From a virus: a stretch of DNA of 44,443 bases. The notes below the pieces were generated by a model, which saw nothing but the letters and a program-made list of their open reading frames with translations, was not told the DNA's origin and made no database searches. Shown piece after piece: positions 31,451 through 37,998 of the stretch; within the stretch, counting starts at the first letter, position 1; every line of letters starts with the position of its first letter. Both the position numbers and the translations under genes were made by a program. The stretch is from UHGV virus genome UHGV-0035288; one strand, 5' to 3'.

Positions 31451-33715
31451 TTAATCTTTTAAATCGTCATCGGTCGCTAAAAGCGTGATAGGGATATCCG
31501 ATTTGATGACCAAATTAGACGACCCATAGATGGCCCCGGTGTGTGGATCGGTGTAAAAACCTATCACTCCTCGCTCCACCATATCGTCGATTGCCTTCGT
31601 CGAAGTGCCACCTTTTGCCAGCCCAGCCTGGCGGACAATTGCCGATTTACTGAATCCAGTATGGTCCGGGTTATCTTCCATCAGTTTTTCCAGTGCCGCA
31701 TAAAGCACTTTCTCTTTTTCGTTGCGCGGTCCGGCGGTGTTCTCTTCCTTAACCGCGGCCTTGCCTGCCGCCTTCGCCTGTTCAATAGCGAACGGTGCCA
31801 GGGCAACCGGTACGAGGTAGAGAGTCTCGTCGCGTGGCGTGGAGGCAATCGGCTTGACGTCCCAACCGGCAACCACGTCACCGAAGTCTGGCCCGGTGCT
31901 GGTGGACTGGTGCGCCTCGAACGCCTCAGATTTGCGGAGATCCACCTTCACCTTGCACTTGAGCAGGACGAAGCCGCGCGGCGCTTGCTTGATGCCGTTA
32001 CGTGACTTCTCATGATACAGGTTCAATTGTCCGGGCTGGTTGTCGTCCGGCTGTTCCAGGAAGAACGCAGAATCGACAGCACCATGCAGCGCGCCGGACC
32101 CGCGTGGCGTTCTGCTGCCGTTTGCACCTTTAGCCGGGTGGTGGATGACGCCCGCACTGCCACCTGTATTTTCCGCGATGGCCTTCAGCGCTTTGACCAC
32201 TTCACCCATATCGCTGGCGTTGTTCTCGTCGAACGGTTTAGCCTCGGCGGACCGCAACGCAACAGTCTGGTTGAGTGAGTCGAACGCCACCAGGCCAACC
32301 GGTTCGCCATTAGCGGTGCGGTTGATAAAGCTGATAACTTCGCGCAAGCCCGATTTGCTGGTGATATCCCAGCCGCGTGACTGCAGATCGATAATGTGCA
32401 GCTTGTCCAGGTCGTGCTCATATTTAATCTGCAATGCTTCTTTACGCTGGTTGGAGGCTTCGCCACCTTCCGCGTCGAAATAGAAGCAATGAGACTGGAC
32501 GACCTTCGCACCGCCAAACGGAATACCCGCGGCAACCGCGCCCATCTGGCCCAGCACGTAGAAAGACTTACCGATATTCGACTCACCCGCCATGTACCAG
32601 GTCGATTTAAAGTTAATCAACCCCTCGATAATCGGGTCGTGCTTACTGAACAGCGCAACCGGCTCGTTATCCAGATCCGCATCGGTGCACCCGCCATATT
32701 CTTCGCCGTCGCCAACCGCATCAACAATATGTTCATATAAGGATTCGACTTCCTCGTCGTCCAGCCCCGGAAGGATGGCGGCGATTTGCTTACGGGACAT
32801 ATTGTGTGGCTCGACGTTCAGGTGGTCCGGTATCCCGATGAGACGTAGCGCCAGGTGCTGGTGTCTATTTAGCTCCGAGCAACACTCGTTGCCGGTGTGC
32901 ATACACTTGAAACGGATCTCGCCATCCTTAACCATGATAGCCGTCGACCCTTCGCCGCTGTGCAGATGTTCGTTCGGGCACGGCACTTCATAGCCCCGCC
33001 CGGAAGATAACTCCTCGAATCCTGCCTGGAAGCACCAGTCCAGAATGCCGTCTGCCACTGCGTCGTCGCCCTGGGTCAGTTCGCGGCGAACTTCCTCCTT
33101 CTCCACGCCCAACTTATCCGCCAGGCGGAGCAGACGACGGACGCGGGCGCGCTTGCCATAGTGGCACTTAATAACAGACTGCTGGTGTGGCAGGTACATC
33201 AGGCGGTTCGTGTCTTTCGTGCAATCGTCGAAGTCCACATCTGACAGACCCAGTTGGTGTAATAGTGCATACTGGACGCGGCCCAGGTCTTCTGCCGGTA
33301 CAGGCTTGTCCGTGAGCACCAGGAAACGGGCGCAACGCGTGCCGCCTTTCAGCGGGTGGCGGTCGCCGGTTGTGGTGTGAAAGACGTGCTCCAGTCCCGC
33401 GTCGATGAACGCCTTACGGCAGCGGCGTAGGGTGCGGGTGTCGGTACGGTCTATATCGAAGAACAGGATCGAGCGGTCCACCGCACTGGTCTTACGACGC
33501 AATCCGTCACTGGTATATGCCACGATGCCGTCGGCCTTACGCTTGCGGCGCGCATACTCGGCTTTATCTTCCGTTTTGTTGATATGCACCGAGGAGATTT
33601 CTTTCGCATCATTGATAAATTCGAAAAACTCTTCGGTAGTCATCTGGAAGTTTTCCGCCCTGGCTTTTTCGCCTTTTTTAGCGGGTCTTGTTACAGCGAA
33701 TTTAATTAAGCTCAT
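31451..33715 (-). CDS. DNA primase-helicase (N-terminal primase-polymerase-like domain, C-terminal P-loop helicase)
   Basis: 754 aa; Walker A-like GESNIGKS in C-terminal half, acidic and Cys/His-containing N-terminal half; ATG 33715. Confidence 0.75.
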   Translation of the reverse strand: MSLIKFAVTRPAKKGEKARAENFQMTTEEFFEFINDAKEISSVHINKTEDKAEYARRKRKADGIVAYTSDGLRRKTSAVDRSILFFDIDRTDTRTLRRCRKAFIDAGLEHVFHTTTGDRHPLKGGTRCARFLVLTDKPVPAEDLGRVQYALLHQLGLSDVDFDDCTKDTNRLMYLPHQQSVIKCHYGKRARVRRLLRLADKLGVEKEEVRRELTQGDDAVADGILDWCFQAGFEELSSGRGYEVPCPNEHLHSGEGSTAIMVKDGEIRFKCMHTGNECCSELNRHQHLALRLIGIPDHLNVEPHNMSRKQIAAILPGLDDEEVESLYEHIVDAVGDGEEYGGCTDADLDNEPVALFSKHDPIIEGLINFKSTWYMAGESNIGKSFYVLGQMGAVAAGIPFGGAKVVQSHCFYFDAEGGEASNQRKEALQIKYEHDLDKLHIIDLQSRGWDITSKSGLREVISFINRTANGEPVGLVAFDSLNQTVALRSAEAKPFDENNASDMGEVVKALKAIAENTGGSAGVIHHPAKGANGSRTPRGSGALHGAVDSAFFLEQPDDNQPGQLNLYHEKSRNGIKQAPRGFVLLKCKVKVDLRKSEAFEAHQSTSTGPDFGDVVAGWDVKPIASTPRDETLYLVPVALAPFAIEQAKAAGKAAVKEENTAGPRNEKEKVLYAALEKLMEDNPDHTGFSKSAIVRQAGLAKGGTSTKAIDDMVERGVIGFYTDPHTGAIYGSSNLVIKSDIPITLLATDDDLKD

Positions 33716-33725
33716 TGCCGTGGCC

Positions 33726-34055
33726 TTACTTAGAAGTTTTATTATTGCGTACCCAGGAGCGCACTGTGCTCTGATTAATTCCGGTCAACTCGGCAATCAT
33801 CGCCCAGGATTTGCCCTCGGCGCGCAAACGGATAACCTGCTTTTTGTATTCTTCCATTTCTTCATTGTGCTTTTGCAGCTTGCTGGCTGCCGTACCGTTG
33901 AGCAATTCCAGCCTGGCGCGTAATTCTTTTTCTACACTGCGCAGGCGCTCTACCTCAAATAGCACCGCCCCAACGGCATCGGTATAAGCCCATGACCGGC
34001 TTGTTTCACTGCTAACAGTCTTCGTTAACATTTCGATTGCGTCGTCGATATTCAT
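33726..34055 (-). CDS. HTH DNA-binding regulator
   Basis: 109 aa; C-terminal helix-turn-helix (SWAMIAELTGINQSTVRSWV); GAGGG SD; first gene of leftward transcription from divergent control region. Confidence 0.55.
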   Translation of the reverse strand: MNIDDAIEMLTKTVSSETSRSWAYTDAVGAVLFEVERLRSVEKELRARLELLNGTAASKLQKHNEEMEEYKKQVIRLRAEGKSWAMIAELTGINQSTVRSWVRNNKTSK

Positions 34056-34185
34056 TGCTCTGCCCTCAGTTGGTTAATGACCAACGAAACTACACCTAAA
34101 ACCGCAAGGTGTCAAATCCTTTGGATATTGAAACGGGCGCGCACGCGTGTAATAATAATTCCCGTCTCATTGTCTCTTATTGGTT

Positions 34186-34220
34186 AGCGCCGTTGCATTT
34201 TGCCTCGGCGCTTTTTTTTT
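34186..34220 (+). terminator. orphan rho-independent terminator in the divergent control region
   Basis: AGCGCCG-13 nt loop-CGGCGCT followed by T9 (34212-34220); no coding gene precedes it on the plus strand within 3 kb. Confidence 0.5.
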
Positions 34221-34231
34221 GAAATTAGTTG

Positions 34232-34260
34232 TTGACTCCCTTCTGCAACCAATCTAATAT
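34232..34260 (+). promoter_or_regulatory. strong sigma70-like early promoter (TTGACT-17-TAATAT)
   Basis: -35 TTGACT 34232-34237, 17-bp spacer containing GCAACCAAT, -10 TAATAT 34255-34260. Confidence 0.6.
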
Positions 34261-34458
34261 TCCCCTCGTCGACAGGATGCAGGACGCAAACTGGAGAGGG
34301 GCAACGCAGGGGCCGGATCGAAGTGTCGGGATTCCCAACCGTGATGATATAACCCGGTCCACTACCCGAACGGGAGAACGCGCAACCGGGCAATATGTTA
34401 AGGCCACCGACGAAGTTAACTGCCGACACCTAAACTTAACCAATCGGAGATATAAAAC

Positions 34459-34974
34459 ATGTTTGAACAAATCGTAAACCTGATTACTCGCGGCGTAGTA
34501 GCACTGGAAACCATCGCTAAGCATTATGAAACCGTTGGCGCTGCCGTTGGTAAGCAGGAAGACAAGAAGCCGTCTAAGGTGAAAAAAGAAGTCGTAGAAG
34601 ATGACGACGATGAAACCGAAGACGAAAAACCGGCGAAAACCAAAAAATCCACAGCGAAAGGCAAGGCCAAAAAAGAAGTCGTAGAAGATGACGACGATGA
34701 AGCCGAAGACGAAAAACCAGCGAAGGGTAAAAAAGCTCCGGCGAAAGGCAAAGGCAAGAAAGATGCCGATCCGCTGGCGGAGATGCGCGACGAAATCAAA
34801 CAATATGCCGCTATTATCGCTGGTGGTGACGACGACGACGCGAACGACGAATTTGACGACCTGCTGGAATCGTTCGAGATCAAATCAATCGCCAAGCTGG
34901 AAGATGAAGACGTCGAAGACTTCCACAAAGATCTTAAAGAAATCGTCGAAACTTATTTCGAACTGGAAGATTAA
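34459..34974 (+). CDS. highly acidic tandem-repeat protein (first early gene)
   Basis: GGAGA SD then ATG 34459; 171 aa; duplicated block KEVVEDDDDE(T/A)EDEKPAK (DNA repeat at about 34584-34634 and 34668-34718); strongly acidic overall. Confidence 0.6.
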   Translation: MFEQIVNLITRGVVALETIAKHYETVGAAVGKQEDKKPSKVKKEVVEDDDDETEDEKPAKTKKSTAKGKAKKEVVEDDDDEAEDEKPAKGKKAPAKGKGKKDADPLAEMRDEIKQYAAIIAGGDDDDANDEFDDLLESFEIKSIAKLEDEDVEDFHKDLKEIVETYFELED

Positions 34975-34981
34975 TATTATC

Positions 34982-35009
34982 CGGCCCGCTAATCTGCGGG
35001 CCTCTTTTT
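34982..35009 (+). terminator. rho-independent terminator
   Basis: GGCCCGC-TAATCT-GCGGGCC hairpin followed by TCTTTTT. Confidence 0.6.
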
Positions 35010-35022
35010 AGAGGACGAGACA

Positions 35023-35274
35023 ATGGCACGATTCACGCTAATCGAGGCGGTGGATTCCCGCGACCAGCGCCCGTACTATTGGCTATTCGAACGCATCGGC
35101 AGCTTTCAGTCACGAGTTGCCGTAATAGATAAACGCCGTAACACCCCCGCGCAAATTAAGCGCACCACCTTTACTAACCCCGACTTTTATATTTGGGCGG
35201 ACTCCAATCTGGAATATGTTCGCTTCGCCGTTGCGTCCGAAGCAAAAACAATTGACCGCTGGGAGACAAAATAA
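35023..35274 (+). CDS. hypothetical protein
   Basis: GAGGA SD then ATG 35023; 83 aa. Confidence 0.5.
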   Translation: MARFTLIEAVDSRDQRPYYWLFERIGSFQSRVAVIDKRRNTPAQIKRTTFTNPDFYIWADSNLEYVRFAVASEAKTIDRWETK

Positions 35275-35463: not shown

Positions 35464-36893
35464 TGGCAATTAAACCAAAACGTAAAACGCAATCCGGTAG
35501 CAATACGGAACACTCATTACTTGGGCCATCCGGTGCTAAAAAGTGGATGGGTTGCCCTGCTGCCCTGGTGGTGGAAAAAGATATCCCGAACGAATCCGGG
35601 CAAGCCGCGATTAACGGTACGAGTATGCACACCGTATCTGAAGTGGTGCTAAACCGCATTATCGCCGGGGAGAAGCTGATAACCGCGAAGACGTATAAAG
35701 GGTGCTACGTCGAGAACGAAGGCAAGGGGCCGGTAAAGGCACACCCGAAAGCACCGAAAGGCGGCGTACTGGTCAACGACGACATGGTGAAACAGTGCGA
35801 CGCGTACATCGACCACTGGCGACCGCTCCTCGAAGTGGCGGAGTTTGTTCAGCTTGAGATGCGCGCCGATCTGACCCGCGTCCTTCACTCAGGCTACGAG
35901 ATCGACGGCAACAGGATTAAAACGTTCGGTACTGCCGATATGGTCATGGTCATGAAAAAGACCGATGGGACGTACATGCTGATTGTTGGCGACCTGAAGA
36001 CCGGGCGGCATAAGGTCGAGGCGAAAGAGAACAAACAGCTTATGTTGTACGCGCTCGGCCTGCTGCGCAAGCTGCAAACTATGTACGACATTACGACCGT
36101 GCGCCTGGTTATCTTCCAGCCGTATTGCGGTGGGGCGTCGGAGTGGGATATTTCGGTAGAAGCTCTGGAGATATTCGCGAAGTTTGCATCCAAGCGCGCT
36201 ATTGCCGCACTGGAGGCGTATTCCCGAGGCAAGAAGGGGCTTACCCGTGCCGACTTCCGCCCCAGCGTTGATGCGTGCCAGTGGTGCCGATTTGCGGATC
36301 AGTGTAGTGCCCGCGCTAAGGCCGCAATCGACACGATGACACCCCCAACGGCAACCGACGAAGACCTGGGCGACGACGTGAGTATTGCGACAGAGGAAGA
36401 ATGCGCCAACCATGACCGCAATATGGCCCGCGAAGCCAGGAAGGCGGCACGACGTGCGAAGCGCGGTAAGAAAGAAGCGGCCCCCGGTGCTATGAGCGCG
36501 GCGGAACTGCGCAAGGCTTATGAAGGCCTGGACGCAATGCGCCAGCACATCAAGGCTATCGAGTCCGCGGTATTCAAGGCGGTCATGGCGGGCGAAGGCG
36601 AATCGCTGGGCCTTAAGATGGTTGCCGGTAAGGAAGGGATCCGTAAGTGGGCGGACGAGAGCGAAGTGATTGAAATCTTCACGAAGGCCCGGATCAAGCG
36701 CGATGTGATGTACAAAGAAACATTGCTCAGCCCGACAGATGCCGAGAAGGTATTGAAGGACGAAAAACCAAAAGTGTGGGCGAAGCTGTGTGATAAAATC
36801 ACGCGCGCACCTGCCAAACCGGTGTTAGCTCCAATCGACGACCCGCGCCCTGCGTGGTCGGAAGCTACTGACGAGGACTTAAGCAATGAATAA
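35463..36893 (+). CDS. PD-(D/E)XK-type nuclease (DUF2800-like, Cas4/RecB-like)
   Basis: 476 aa; N-terminus HSLLGPSGAKKWMGCPA is the characteristic start of this family; C-terminal Cys cluster (CQWCRFADQC); TAATG coupling to upstream gene. Confidence 0.65.
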   Translation: MAIKPKRKTQSGSNTEHSLLGPSGAKKWMGCPAALVVEKDIPNESGQAAINGTSMHTVSEVVLNRIIAGEKLITAKTYKGCYVENEGKGPVKAHPKAPKGGVLVNDDMVKQCDAYIDHWRPLLEVAEFVQLEMRADLTRVLHSGYEIDGNRIKTFGTADMVMVMKKTDGTYMLIVGDLKTGRHKVEAKENKQLMLYALGLLRKLQTMYDITTVRLVIFQPYCGGASEWDISVEALEIFAKFASKRAIAALEAYSRGKKGLTRADFRPSVDACQWCRFADQCSARAKAAIDTMTPPTATDEDLGDDVSIATEEECANHDRNMAREARKAARRAKRGKKEAAPGAMSAAELRKAYEGLDAMRQHIKAIESAVFKAVMAGEGESLGLKMVAGKEGIRKWADESEVIEIFTKARIKRDVMYKETLLSPTDAEKVLKDEKPKVWAKLCDKITRAPAKPVLAPIDDPRPAWSEATDEDLSNE

Positions 36894-37218: not shown

Positions 37219-37998
37219 ATGGCTAAAGTCAACCTGAAAAATGTGCGTGTATGTTTCCTTAAAATTTGGGAACGTGATACCCCTAAACAGGATGGACAAA
37301 AACCGGCATACCGCGCCGTGATTCTTCTTGATAAAGAAGATCCGCAGGTGGACAAAGTGGAAGCGGCAGCGCGCGCAGTGCTCACCGACAAGCTGAAATC
37401 CGAGAAGAATGCCGATAAGTGGATGGACCGCCACTACGCCCAGGATTCTAAGGAATGCGCAGTCCGCGACGGTGACGAGCGCGACGAAGTAACCGAAGAA
37501 TTCGAAGGCATGTTGTACATCAACGCTAAATCGTTCAAACAGCCGAACATCCAAACGTCACTGGGCGAGAAGCAGACCGAGCAAGGTCTGACCGTAGAAG
37601 GCGACGAGATCGAAGGCCAGGAAATCTATTCCGGTTGTTATTGCAACGTGTCACTGGATATTTGGGCGTGGAACAACACCAACGGTAAGGGACTCGGTGC
37701 TGGTCTTTTGGGTCTGCGATTCCGCGTCGACGGCGAAGCCTTCGGCGGTGGCGGGTCTTCTTGCTCGGACGAGGACCTGGGCGACGATGACGAAGATGAA
37801 AGCCCGCGCAAGTCCAAAAAGTCAAAACGTCGTGATGACGATGATGAAGACGACAAGCCGCGCAAGTCCAAAAAGTCCAAGCGCCGCGATGACGACGACG
37901 ATGATGAAACACCTCGCAAACGTCGTAAGCCACGCGATGACGAAGATGAGGACGACGACGACGAAGACAAAGCACCGCGTAAACGTCGCCGCCGTTAA
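37219..37998 (+). CDS. single-stranded DNA-binding protein (DUF2815-like) with Lys/Arg-Asp/Glu repeat tail
   Basis: Track start is GTG 37198; ATG 37219 has GAGGA SD. N-terminus MAKVNLKNVRV typical of this SSB family; C-terminal 90 aa are alternating basic/acidic repeats (PRKSKKSKRRDDDDEDD x2, ending KRRRR). Confidence 0.6.
   Translation: MAKVNLKNVRVCFLKIWERDTPKQDGQKPAYRAVILLDKEDPQVDKVEAAARAVLTDKLKSEKNADKWMDRHYAQDSKECAVRDGDERDEVTEEFEGMLYINAKSFKQPNIQTSLGEKQTEQGLTVEGDEIEGQEIYSGCYCNVSLDIWAWNNTNGKGLGAGLLGLRFRVDGEAFGGGGSSCSDEDLGDDDEDESPRKSKKSKRRDDDDEDDKPRKSKKSKRRDDDDDDETPRKRRKPRDDEDEDDDDEDKAPRKRRRR

Follow-up and report, generated by a model that had tools for sequence, protein, structure and literature searches.

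A conserved acidic protein of the Dhillonvirus replication module: three-part architecture, structured leader RNA and a tentative role as replisome or recombination adaptor

The window analysed in this study, a stretch of 44,443 nucleotides (nt) of viral DNA presented as virus genome UHGV-0035288, encodes on its plus strand a protein of 171 amino acids (aa) that belongs to the HK578 gp44/PHROG 3127 family. A preliminary description of this gene gave its open reading frame (ORF) correctly (34459-34974, ATG start) and proposed that the product is a DNA mimic of the T7 Ocr type. The comparisons performed here point in another direction. The protein consists of two small conserved terminal domains joined by a variable tether, its gene occupies a fixed place in a replication/recombination module, and we tentatively favour an adaptor function in the replisome or in recombination, by which the acidic domain would dock on the basic DNA-binding surface of a partner from the same module. 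Dhillonvirus comprises the HK578-like virulent siphoviruses of Escherichia coli. About 130 complete Dhillonvirus genomes of approximately 44 kb match the 2-kb region around the gene at 94-95% identity, and the window is thus essentially a whole phage genome. Among the Dhillonvirus copies, substitutions at codon positions 1, 2 and 3 number 1, 3 and 25 in the N-terminal 30 codons, and 5, 2 and 143 in the C-terminal 69 codons; this concentration on the third position marks the ORF as coding and shows strong purifying selection. The gene is labelled “hypothetical protein” in every deposited record compared, and no paper treating HK578 gp44 was found in the literature searched.

The protein is indeed acidic, with 26 Asp, 26 Glu, 28 Lys and 2 Arg residues, a net charge of -22 and an isoelectric point (pI) of 4.48. 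The tandem repeat contributes little to this acidity: 23 acidic residues are almost balanced by 22 basic ones in the segment that contains it (aa 32-102), whereas the C-terminal 69 aa (38% Asp+Glu) have a net charge of -20, that is, almost all the net charge of the protein. Two other acidic features noted earlier, a poly-Asp stretch (GGDDDDANDEFDD, aa 122-134) and an acidic C-terminus, were confirmed. An AlphaFold2 (AF2) model built with the family alignment predicts an N-terminal helix (residues 2-29; predicted local distance difference test score, pLDDT, about 80), a disordered region (residues 30-100; about 40) and a three-helix bundle (residues 105-167; above 90). In a second AF2 model, made for a natural homologue with a short linker (P0098, 115 aa), the C-terminal bundle was kept and the N-helix was not confidently docked on it, so that this helix probably contacts another partner or self-associates.

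This partition is mirrored in the pattern of conservation. In an alignment of 105 homologues, the N-helix (MFEQIVNLITRGVVALETIAKHYETVGAAV) is nearly invariant, and distant relatives retain it as M[LF][ED]K[FL]LALLERFVVAHELIA. The C-terminal domain is likewise nearly invariant, acidic residues included, with a motif GGDDDDA[NS]D[ED]F...DLL that contains the poly-Asp stretch; in the window protein the domain shows the invariant FDDLLE, and the chain ends in YFELED. The linker, in contrast, ranges from 16 to 80 aa among 99 homologues, its net charge varies from -6 to +8 (median +1), and its acidic blocks number none, one or two in 21, 44 and 34 proteins, respectively; in some relatives the segment has been swapped for unrelated sequence. 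The duplication described earlier within this linker is real and far beyond chance, its two units (34576-34662 and 34663-34749) sharing 86% nucleotide identity without indels, although the unit measures 29 aa (87 nt) and not the 20 aa originally given. HK578 gp44, of 143 aa, shows 70% BLASTP identity to the window protein with a 28-residue gap, which corresponds to about one repeat unit fewer: one unit as against two. As far as the homologues indicate, the acidic repeat block is thus the least conserved and a dispensable part of the protein, a variable flexible tether whose tandem repeat is a replication-slippage expansion outside the functional core. The conspicuous repeat, a tempting basis for interpretation, is better regarded as evolutionary noise in the tether, the function lying in the small flanking domains.

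Searches for relatives gave a well-defined family of unassigned function. The full-length profile of PHROG 3127 was matched with E=5.4e-53 (residues 1-171 aligned with positions 1-178 of the 178-position profile), and this family, annotated “unknown function”, was the only PHROGs hit, while Pfam, NCBIfam and PADLOC gave nothing above threshold. No Pfam family passed its cut-off for the window protein or for 28 family members, and weak matches to DUF6669 and BUD22 were dismissed as noise, as they were not reproduced in other family members. When the single sequence and two family profiles were compared with all PDB sequences, no relevant match was obtained, and BFVD returned only uncharacterised phage proteins (eiAU Gp46, St162 and the MB78 protein, which carries the label “13.88 kDa late protein”). 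A profile of the C-terminal domain run against 1.8 billion representative proteins retrieved 38 clusters only; most of the 28 cluster sequences retrieved were small proteins with an N-helix, a charged disordered linker and the C-terminal domain, and the distant consensus of the latter reads ...GDSD[DE]CAD.FDDLLEDY.V[RK].V.KL.D.DV..FH.... Three distant members (P0108, P0110 and P0112) have two tandem acidic C-terminal domains, so that domain number varies as well. HK578 gp44, Sodalis phage SO-1 gp46, Edwardsiella phage eiAU Gp46 and the Salmonella phage MB78 protein share the three-part architecture and the genome position of the window protein; the first two are, like it, annotated as hypothetical proteins.

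The genomic context is equally constant. Downstream of the gene follow, in this order, an 83-aa ORF, a 62-aa ORF, a DUF2800/PD-(D/E)XK nuclease, an 80-aa ORF, an Enc34/gp2.5-like single-stranded DNA-binding (SSB) and annealing protein, and DNA polymerase I (PolA), whereas a helix-turn-helix protein and a primase-helicase are encoded divergently upstream. The HK578 annotation shows the same position, between the primase-helicase and the nuclease, SSB and PolA genes. This arrangement was found in all 70 distant viral loci compared, in which the gene is flanked by the primase-helicase on one side and by the (orf83)-DUF2800 nuclease-SSB-PolA series on the other, whichever strand encodes the primase. 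In many of these loci the primase-helicase is co-directional and no divergent promoter region adjoins the gene. The distant relatives comprise Guernseyvirinae (Jerseyvirus, Kagunavirus), phiEap-2 and similar phages, and the family is present in both clades with close DUF2800 homologues, Dhillonvirus and Guernseyvirinae. At these loci, PolA is 60-66% identical to its counterpart, and the values for nuclease and SSB are about 47% and 38%, respectively; the gp44-like family, at approximately 35% identity, has diverged to a similar extent as the SSB and primase of the same loci. Fixed and syntenic, the gene shows the pattern of a core module member, unlike that of a patchy accessory anti-defence gene, as judged from these comparisons.

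Three neighbours of the gene share a short acidic motif. Among the 43 proteins of the window, [ST][DE][DE]DL occurs only in the primase-helicase, the DUF2800 nuclease and the SSB. The primase-helicase ends in ATDDDLKD* and the nuclease in ATDEDLSNE*, with a second, internal copy in the nuclease, and in the SSB the motif stands at the start of the tail. At the distant loci, the terminal motif is kept in 58 of 67 nucleases and 48 of 68 primase-helicases, with parallel changes in both (e.g., TEEDLE in each). It is probably a replisome docking peptide. The SSB tail itself is built much like the linker of the gp44-like protein, of repeated alternating acidic and basic blocks: it is a blocky polyampholyte with three tandem DDDDEDD-KPRKSKKSKRR blocks that ends in KAPRKRRRR.

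The tripartite architecture, the conservation of both terminal domains, the freedom of the linker and the synteny in 70 out of 70 loci lead us to the adaptor reading. T7 gp2.5 and gp4 have acidic C-terminal tails, and E. coli SSB a C-terminal tip, that dock on polymerase or partner proteins, and, by analogy with the T7 tails, the acidic motif shared by the primase-helicase, nuclease and SSB of this phage suggests a replisome held together by contacts between acidic peptides and basic surfaces, which is the main positive argument for an adaptor. The FDDLLE sequence and the poly-Asp surface of the gp44-like protein would be of the same style as the acidic motifs of its neighbours. The protein would thus be a modular, non-enzymatic accessory factor of the replication/recombination module, probably abundant, with two small interaction modules, the N-terminal amphipathic helix and the very acidic three-helix bundle with its invariant GGDDDDA[NS]D[ED]F...DDLLE surface, separated by a flexible tether that may tolerate large changes in length. 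The acidic domain would dock on the basic nucleic-acid-binding surface of PolA, the gp2.5-like SSB or the primase-helicase, the docked protein acting as a connector or regulator in the manner of the T7 gp2.5 and gp4 tails on T7 DNA polymerase, and the N-helix may supply self-association or a second contact. The acidic modules of T7 are likewise encoded in the replication cluster, although in T7 gp2.5 and gp4 they are terminal peptides, whereas here the prediction is a folded domain of three helices carried by a polypeptide of its own. The chaperone-like role that had been mentioned earlier as an alternative comes closer to this proposal than does DNA mimicry.

Several points weigh against an adaptor. 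Both the binding partner and any effect on replication are inferred, and the C-terminal domain is a generic three-helix bundle whose fold offers no functional hint. Moreover, small phage proteins of high acidity are classically DNA mimics aimed at the host, and the T7 replication cluster embeds the inhibitors gp5.5 and gp5.9, so that synteny alone is no proof of a role in the replisome.

A host-directed mimic, whether aimed at RecBCD, at another DNA-binding host protein or at restriction-modification (R-M) systems, is on the whole rather unlikely, yet it deserves serious attention. Within this group, inhibition of RecBCD or of another host nuclease, as by lambda Gam or T7 gp5.9, has a small but appreciable chance of being correct. 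An acidic DNA mimic would here shield the linear phage DNA ends that the adjacent recombination system needs, and the position of the gene upstream of a PD-(D/E)XK nuclease and a gp2.5-like SSB/annealing protein recalls the lambda arrangement gam-bet-exo; like Gam and gp5.9, the protein is small, helical and acidic (38% Asp+Glu in its C-terminal domain) and is encoded beside exonuclease and annealing-protein genes, although it has no homology to either in Pfam or among PDB sequences. The RecBCD inhibitors Gam and gp5.9 trigger P2 OLD, a defence that acts against Dhillonvirus, and the genus may therefore encode a RecBCD inhibitor of its own; however, the three HK578 escapers of OLD map to gp43 (a frameshift), the primase-helicase gp46 and the gp45 promoter, none of them to gp44, in a small and non-saturating screen (bioRxiv 10.64898/2026.07.10.737580). 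Because one escaper maps to gp43, this gene is a better RecBCD-related candidate than gp44, and its window counterpart, the 83-aa ORF directly downstream (95% identical to HK578 gp43, no Pfam match), may be considered a candidate recombination or RecBCD-related factor. The KpAvs2 trigger Ksap1, the RAZR trigger and the SSB and polymerase genes affected in the SECphi4/18 escape mutants of Stokar-Avihail et al. were also considered, and all are genes other than gp44. A decoy or inhibitor of some other host DNA-binding protein (H-NS, HU, RNA polymerase or the host SSB), in the manner of T7 gp5.5, T4 Arn or SPO1 Gp44/Gp46, has a slimmer chance still. The conserved acidic surface and an expression unit suited to an abundant product would agree with it, and SPO1 Gp44 offers a precedent, being reported as a phage DNA mimic with disordered acidic parts (PMC8208478); nevertheless, no homology to gp5.5, Arn or Gp44/Gp46 was detected, and such a decoy does not predict strict linkage to the replication module across hosts. 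For the Ocr-type activity originally proposed, by which a mimic expressed first after injection would protect against restriction or bacteriophage exclusion (BREX), we consider the odds poor. Like T7 Ocr, the protein is small, acidic and promoter-proximal, its gene has its own terminator, and the Asp/Glu density of its C-terminal domain is comparable to or higher than that of Ocr; DNA mimics are not known to share a common fold, and missing homology is therefore weak counter-evidence. What stands of the proposal is the promoter-proximal position, between a conserved promoter and a conserved terminator, and the strongly conserved, extremely acidic domain, which might still mimic nucleic acid. 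The acidic repeat that had served as its basis is variable, dispensable and charge-neutral, and no relationship to Ocr was found: Pfam, PDB-sequence and fold searches linked the protein neither by sequence nor by fold to Ocr, ArdA, Gam, gp5.9, Arn or any solved structure, and the predicted structure does not resemble the elongated all-helical dimer of Ocr, 40% of the protein being a disordered, lysine-rich, charge-neutral linker. Furthermore, whereas ocr lies in the leading-end early region of T7, this gene belongs to the syntenic core of a replication module and in many relatives stands on the same strand as the primase-helicase and nuclease genes that flank it. The HK578 record already includes methyltransferases and a Lar-like protein. 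According to the BASEL study, Dhillonviruses are only moderately resistant to R-M systems (PMC11990801), and that they are still moderately restricted argues mildly against a potent Ocr-like function. An Ocr-style anti-restriction role is thus unsupported, though conceivable.

Two further explanations concern the disordered region and the repeat. In Caulobacter, PopZ combines a short N-helix, an acidic proline-rich disordered linker that varies in length and a C-terminal three-helix bundle in about 170 aa of low pI. The window protein has the same order of parts and a similar length and pI, a resemblance in architecture only, its linker being a polyampholyte rather than purely acidic and proline-rich. 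By extension, it could be a scaffold or hub of a replication compartment, in which linker and SSB tail would co-condense and concentrate the replisome proteins with [ST][DE][DE]DL tails. The alternating acidic and basic tandem blocks in both gp44-like proteins and SSB, the tail motif common to three replisome proteins and the predicted tripartite architecture would all suit a hub, whereas natural variants almost devoid of linker (P0098) indicate that the disordered region is not essential to the core function, no Pfam match links the protein to PopZ, and the proposal is entirely inferential; we hold it to be quite improbable. No better prospects are given to its fullest version, namely that a gp44-like hub, launched from a 150-nt RNA, organises a replisome wired by acidic motifs and charged disordered regions, possibly as a condensate, recruiting the primase-helicase, nuclease and SSB through [ST][DE][DE]DL and tuned by changes in repeat copy number. 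Finally, the tandem DNA repeat might itself be the functional element, as origin iterons within the gene with the linker peptide as a by-product, in the way that ori-lambda lies within gene O. The repeat is located at the cumulative GC-skew minimum of the genome (window 33000-35000), next to the switch to divergent transcription by the primase-helicase operon, and it is strongly purine-skewed (A-over-T skew +0.7). However, GAA/GAC/GAT/AAA codons account for its skew, gene orientation switches at the same place as the GC-skew minimum, and the copy number varies from 0 to 2, with the segment replaced by unrelated sequence in some relatives. With a dispensable repeat, an origin within the gene was rejected as the principal explanation, and we regard it as barely plausible.

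The gene lies in a compact expression unit (Table 1). Contrary to the preliminary description, it is promoter-proximal without following its promoter directly: the promoter-like site P2, whose -35 box is kept as TTGACT or TTGACA among Dhillonvirus loci, lies about 200 nt 5' of the ATG, with a structured leader RNA in between. An additional promoter-like site, P1, is found further upstream, followed at a distance of about 30 nt by a terminator-like hairpin with a T9-11 run that is kept in 14 Dhillonvirus loci and was absent from the terminator-scanner list, probably because its loop is too long for the rules of the scanner; P1 and this hairpin would yield a transcript of about 58 nt, a small RNA or attenuator just upstream of P2. 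The intrinsic terminator directly after the stop codon is kept in 12 of 14 Dhillonvirus loci, with its loop inverted in two. With its promoter, strong Shine-Dalgarno sequence and own terminator, the unit looks suited to high, separately set expression and would fit a stoichiometric product, as far as these signals can be read; a Kagunavirus transcriptome study yielded no usable timing for the homologous gene. In two Dhillonvirus contigs (L077 and L081), the place of the terminator hairpin after the stop codon is taken by a different sequence that starts with an ATG (TAATATCATGGACTATGAAATG...), which may be an inserted extra ORF. The host labels of two records, OQ221563.1 (“Acinetobacter phage NJ01”) and MG065648.1 (“Campylobacter phage A144”), look doubtful, as both match this E. 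coli Dhillonvirus at about 95% identity over the 2-kb region.

The leader RNA recurs in other siphovirus contigs. The leader of about 200 nt is 72-90% identical to intergenic regions of unrelated phages (Warwickvirus/Drexlerviridae, Murrayvirus and Klebsiella phages); the aligned instances have a -10-like box a few nucleotides upstream, and their downstream genes are mutually unrelated. Individual folds agree on one arm, in which a 5-6-bp stem occurs in seven different versions and an apical 3-bp stem in three. The covarying stems escaped RNAalifold owing to misregister in a MAFFT alignment; they were resolved by setting the structure by hand and by a covariance model for which four copies from outside Dhillonvirus were used. 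This model identified 34266-34417 in the window (100 bits, E=7e-22) and a single copy in each genome. Compensatory double changes were found in 12 of 31 pairs, and 95% of cells were paired, as against 16-38% with slid partners, a value reached by none of 500 shuffles. Twelve further copies were detected in metagenomes, none in 5,426 E. coli genomes, and Rfam 15 gave no match. The covariance model found no copy in the Guernseyvirinae loci, and the leader RNA is independent of the gp44-like protein family. Membership of the HK022 put-like antiterminators was not supported, as these comprise about 70 nt and two stems, versus 150 nt and a multi-branch fold; no intrinsic terminators were seen downstream of the leader RNA in two other phage contexts. 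As the genes that follow it are unrelated, the leader RNA is unlikely to be a riboswitch dedicated to a single gene family. The loop of the 5' hairpin, CAGGAUG, resembles a CsrA-binding site. In five homologues (P0003, P0049, P0067, P0068 and P0070), the annotated ORF is extended upstream by approximately 60 codons (MQDANWRGATQGPDRS..., beginning MQDANWRG) across the leader RNA, corresponding to window positions 34275-34458; as the frame of this extension is out of phase with the gene in the window, it is considered an annotation artefact.

Table 1. Coordinates of the features discussed (window positions, except in the last row)
Feature	Position	Strand	Basis
[ST][DE][DE]DL site (replisome protein)	31454-31477	-	
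Promoter-like site P1, TTGAAA-17-AATAAT, TG before second hexamer, 10/12	34128..34156	+	equivalent annotated promoter in HK578 record
Terminator-like hairpin GCGCCG...CGGCGC, then T9-11 run	34186..34221	+	RNAfold -16.4 kcal/mol; kept in 14 Dhillonvirus loci
Promoter-like site P2, TTGACT-17-TAATAT, 9/12 matches	34232..34260	+	annotated promoter in HK578 GenBank record
Conserved structured leader RNA, 150 nt, a few nt after P2 -10 box	34266..34417	+	covariance model
Shine-Dalgarno GGAG, 9 nt before ATG	34446..34449	+	direct sequence reading
Coding sequence, HK578 gp44/PHROG 3127 family, 171 aa, ATG start	34459..34974	+	ORF and profile match
N-terminal amphipathic helix, aa 1-30, nearly invariant, heptad-like hydrophobic spacing	34459..34548	+	AF2 and alignment
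Disordered polyampholyte linker, aa 31-102, length hypervariable	34549..34764	+	AF2 pLDDT ~40; 99 homologues
Tandem duplication within linker, 87 nt x2 (29-aa unit)	34576..34749	+	Tandem Repeats Finder score 273
Acidic three-helix C-terminal domain, aa 103-171, net -20	34765..34971	+	AF2 helices 105-122, 126-138, 149-167
Intrinsic terminator, 7 G-C pairs (hairpin 34983-35002) and T-run, directly after stop	34983..35010	+	RNAfold -17.2 kcal/mol
83-aa ORF directly downstream, 95% identical to HK578 gp43	35023-35274	+	no Pfam match
[ST][DE][DE]DL site (replisome protein)	36357-36383	+	
[ST][DE][DE]DL site (replisome protein)	36870-36890	+	
gp2.5-like SSB tail, blocky polyampholyte	~37753-37995	+	
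[ST][DE][DE]DL site (replisome protein)	~37765-37790	+	
Leader RNA copies in other loci	L003 1724-1872; L004 2489-2638; L079, L080, L083, L086, L088		

Genes of the gp44-like family occur in several hundred sequenced genomes of virulent siphoviruses that infect E. coli or Salmonella (Dhillonvirus, Jerseyvirus and Kagunavirus), phages much used in therapy, biocontrol and defence screens (SECphi4, SECphi18, HK578, BASEL Bas14-18), and the 150-nt structured RNA that precedes the gene in the window is a previously undescribed element. The window protein is the only conserved protein of its replication module without even a predicted activity. Whether it is a connector or a host-directed mimic would therefore clarify the working of the widespread PolA/DUF2800/gp2.5-like module, and the answer would also show which phage component is sensed by OLD, Hachiman, Borvo or retron Eco8.

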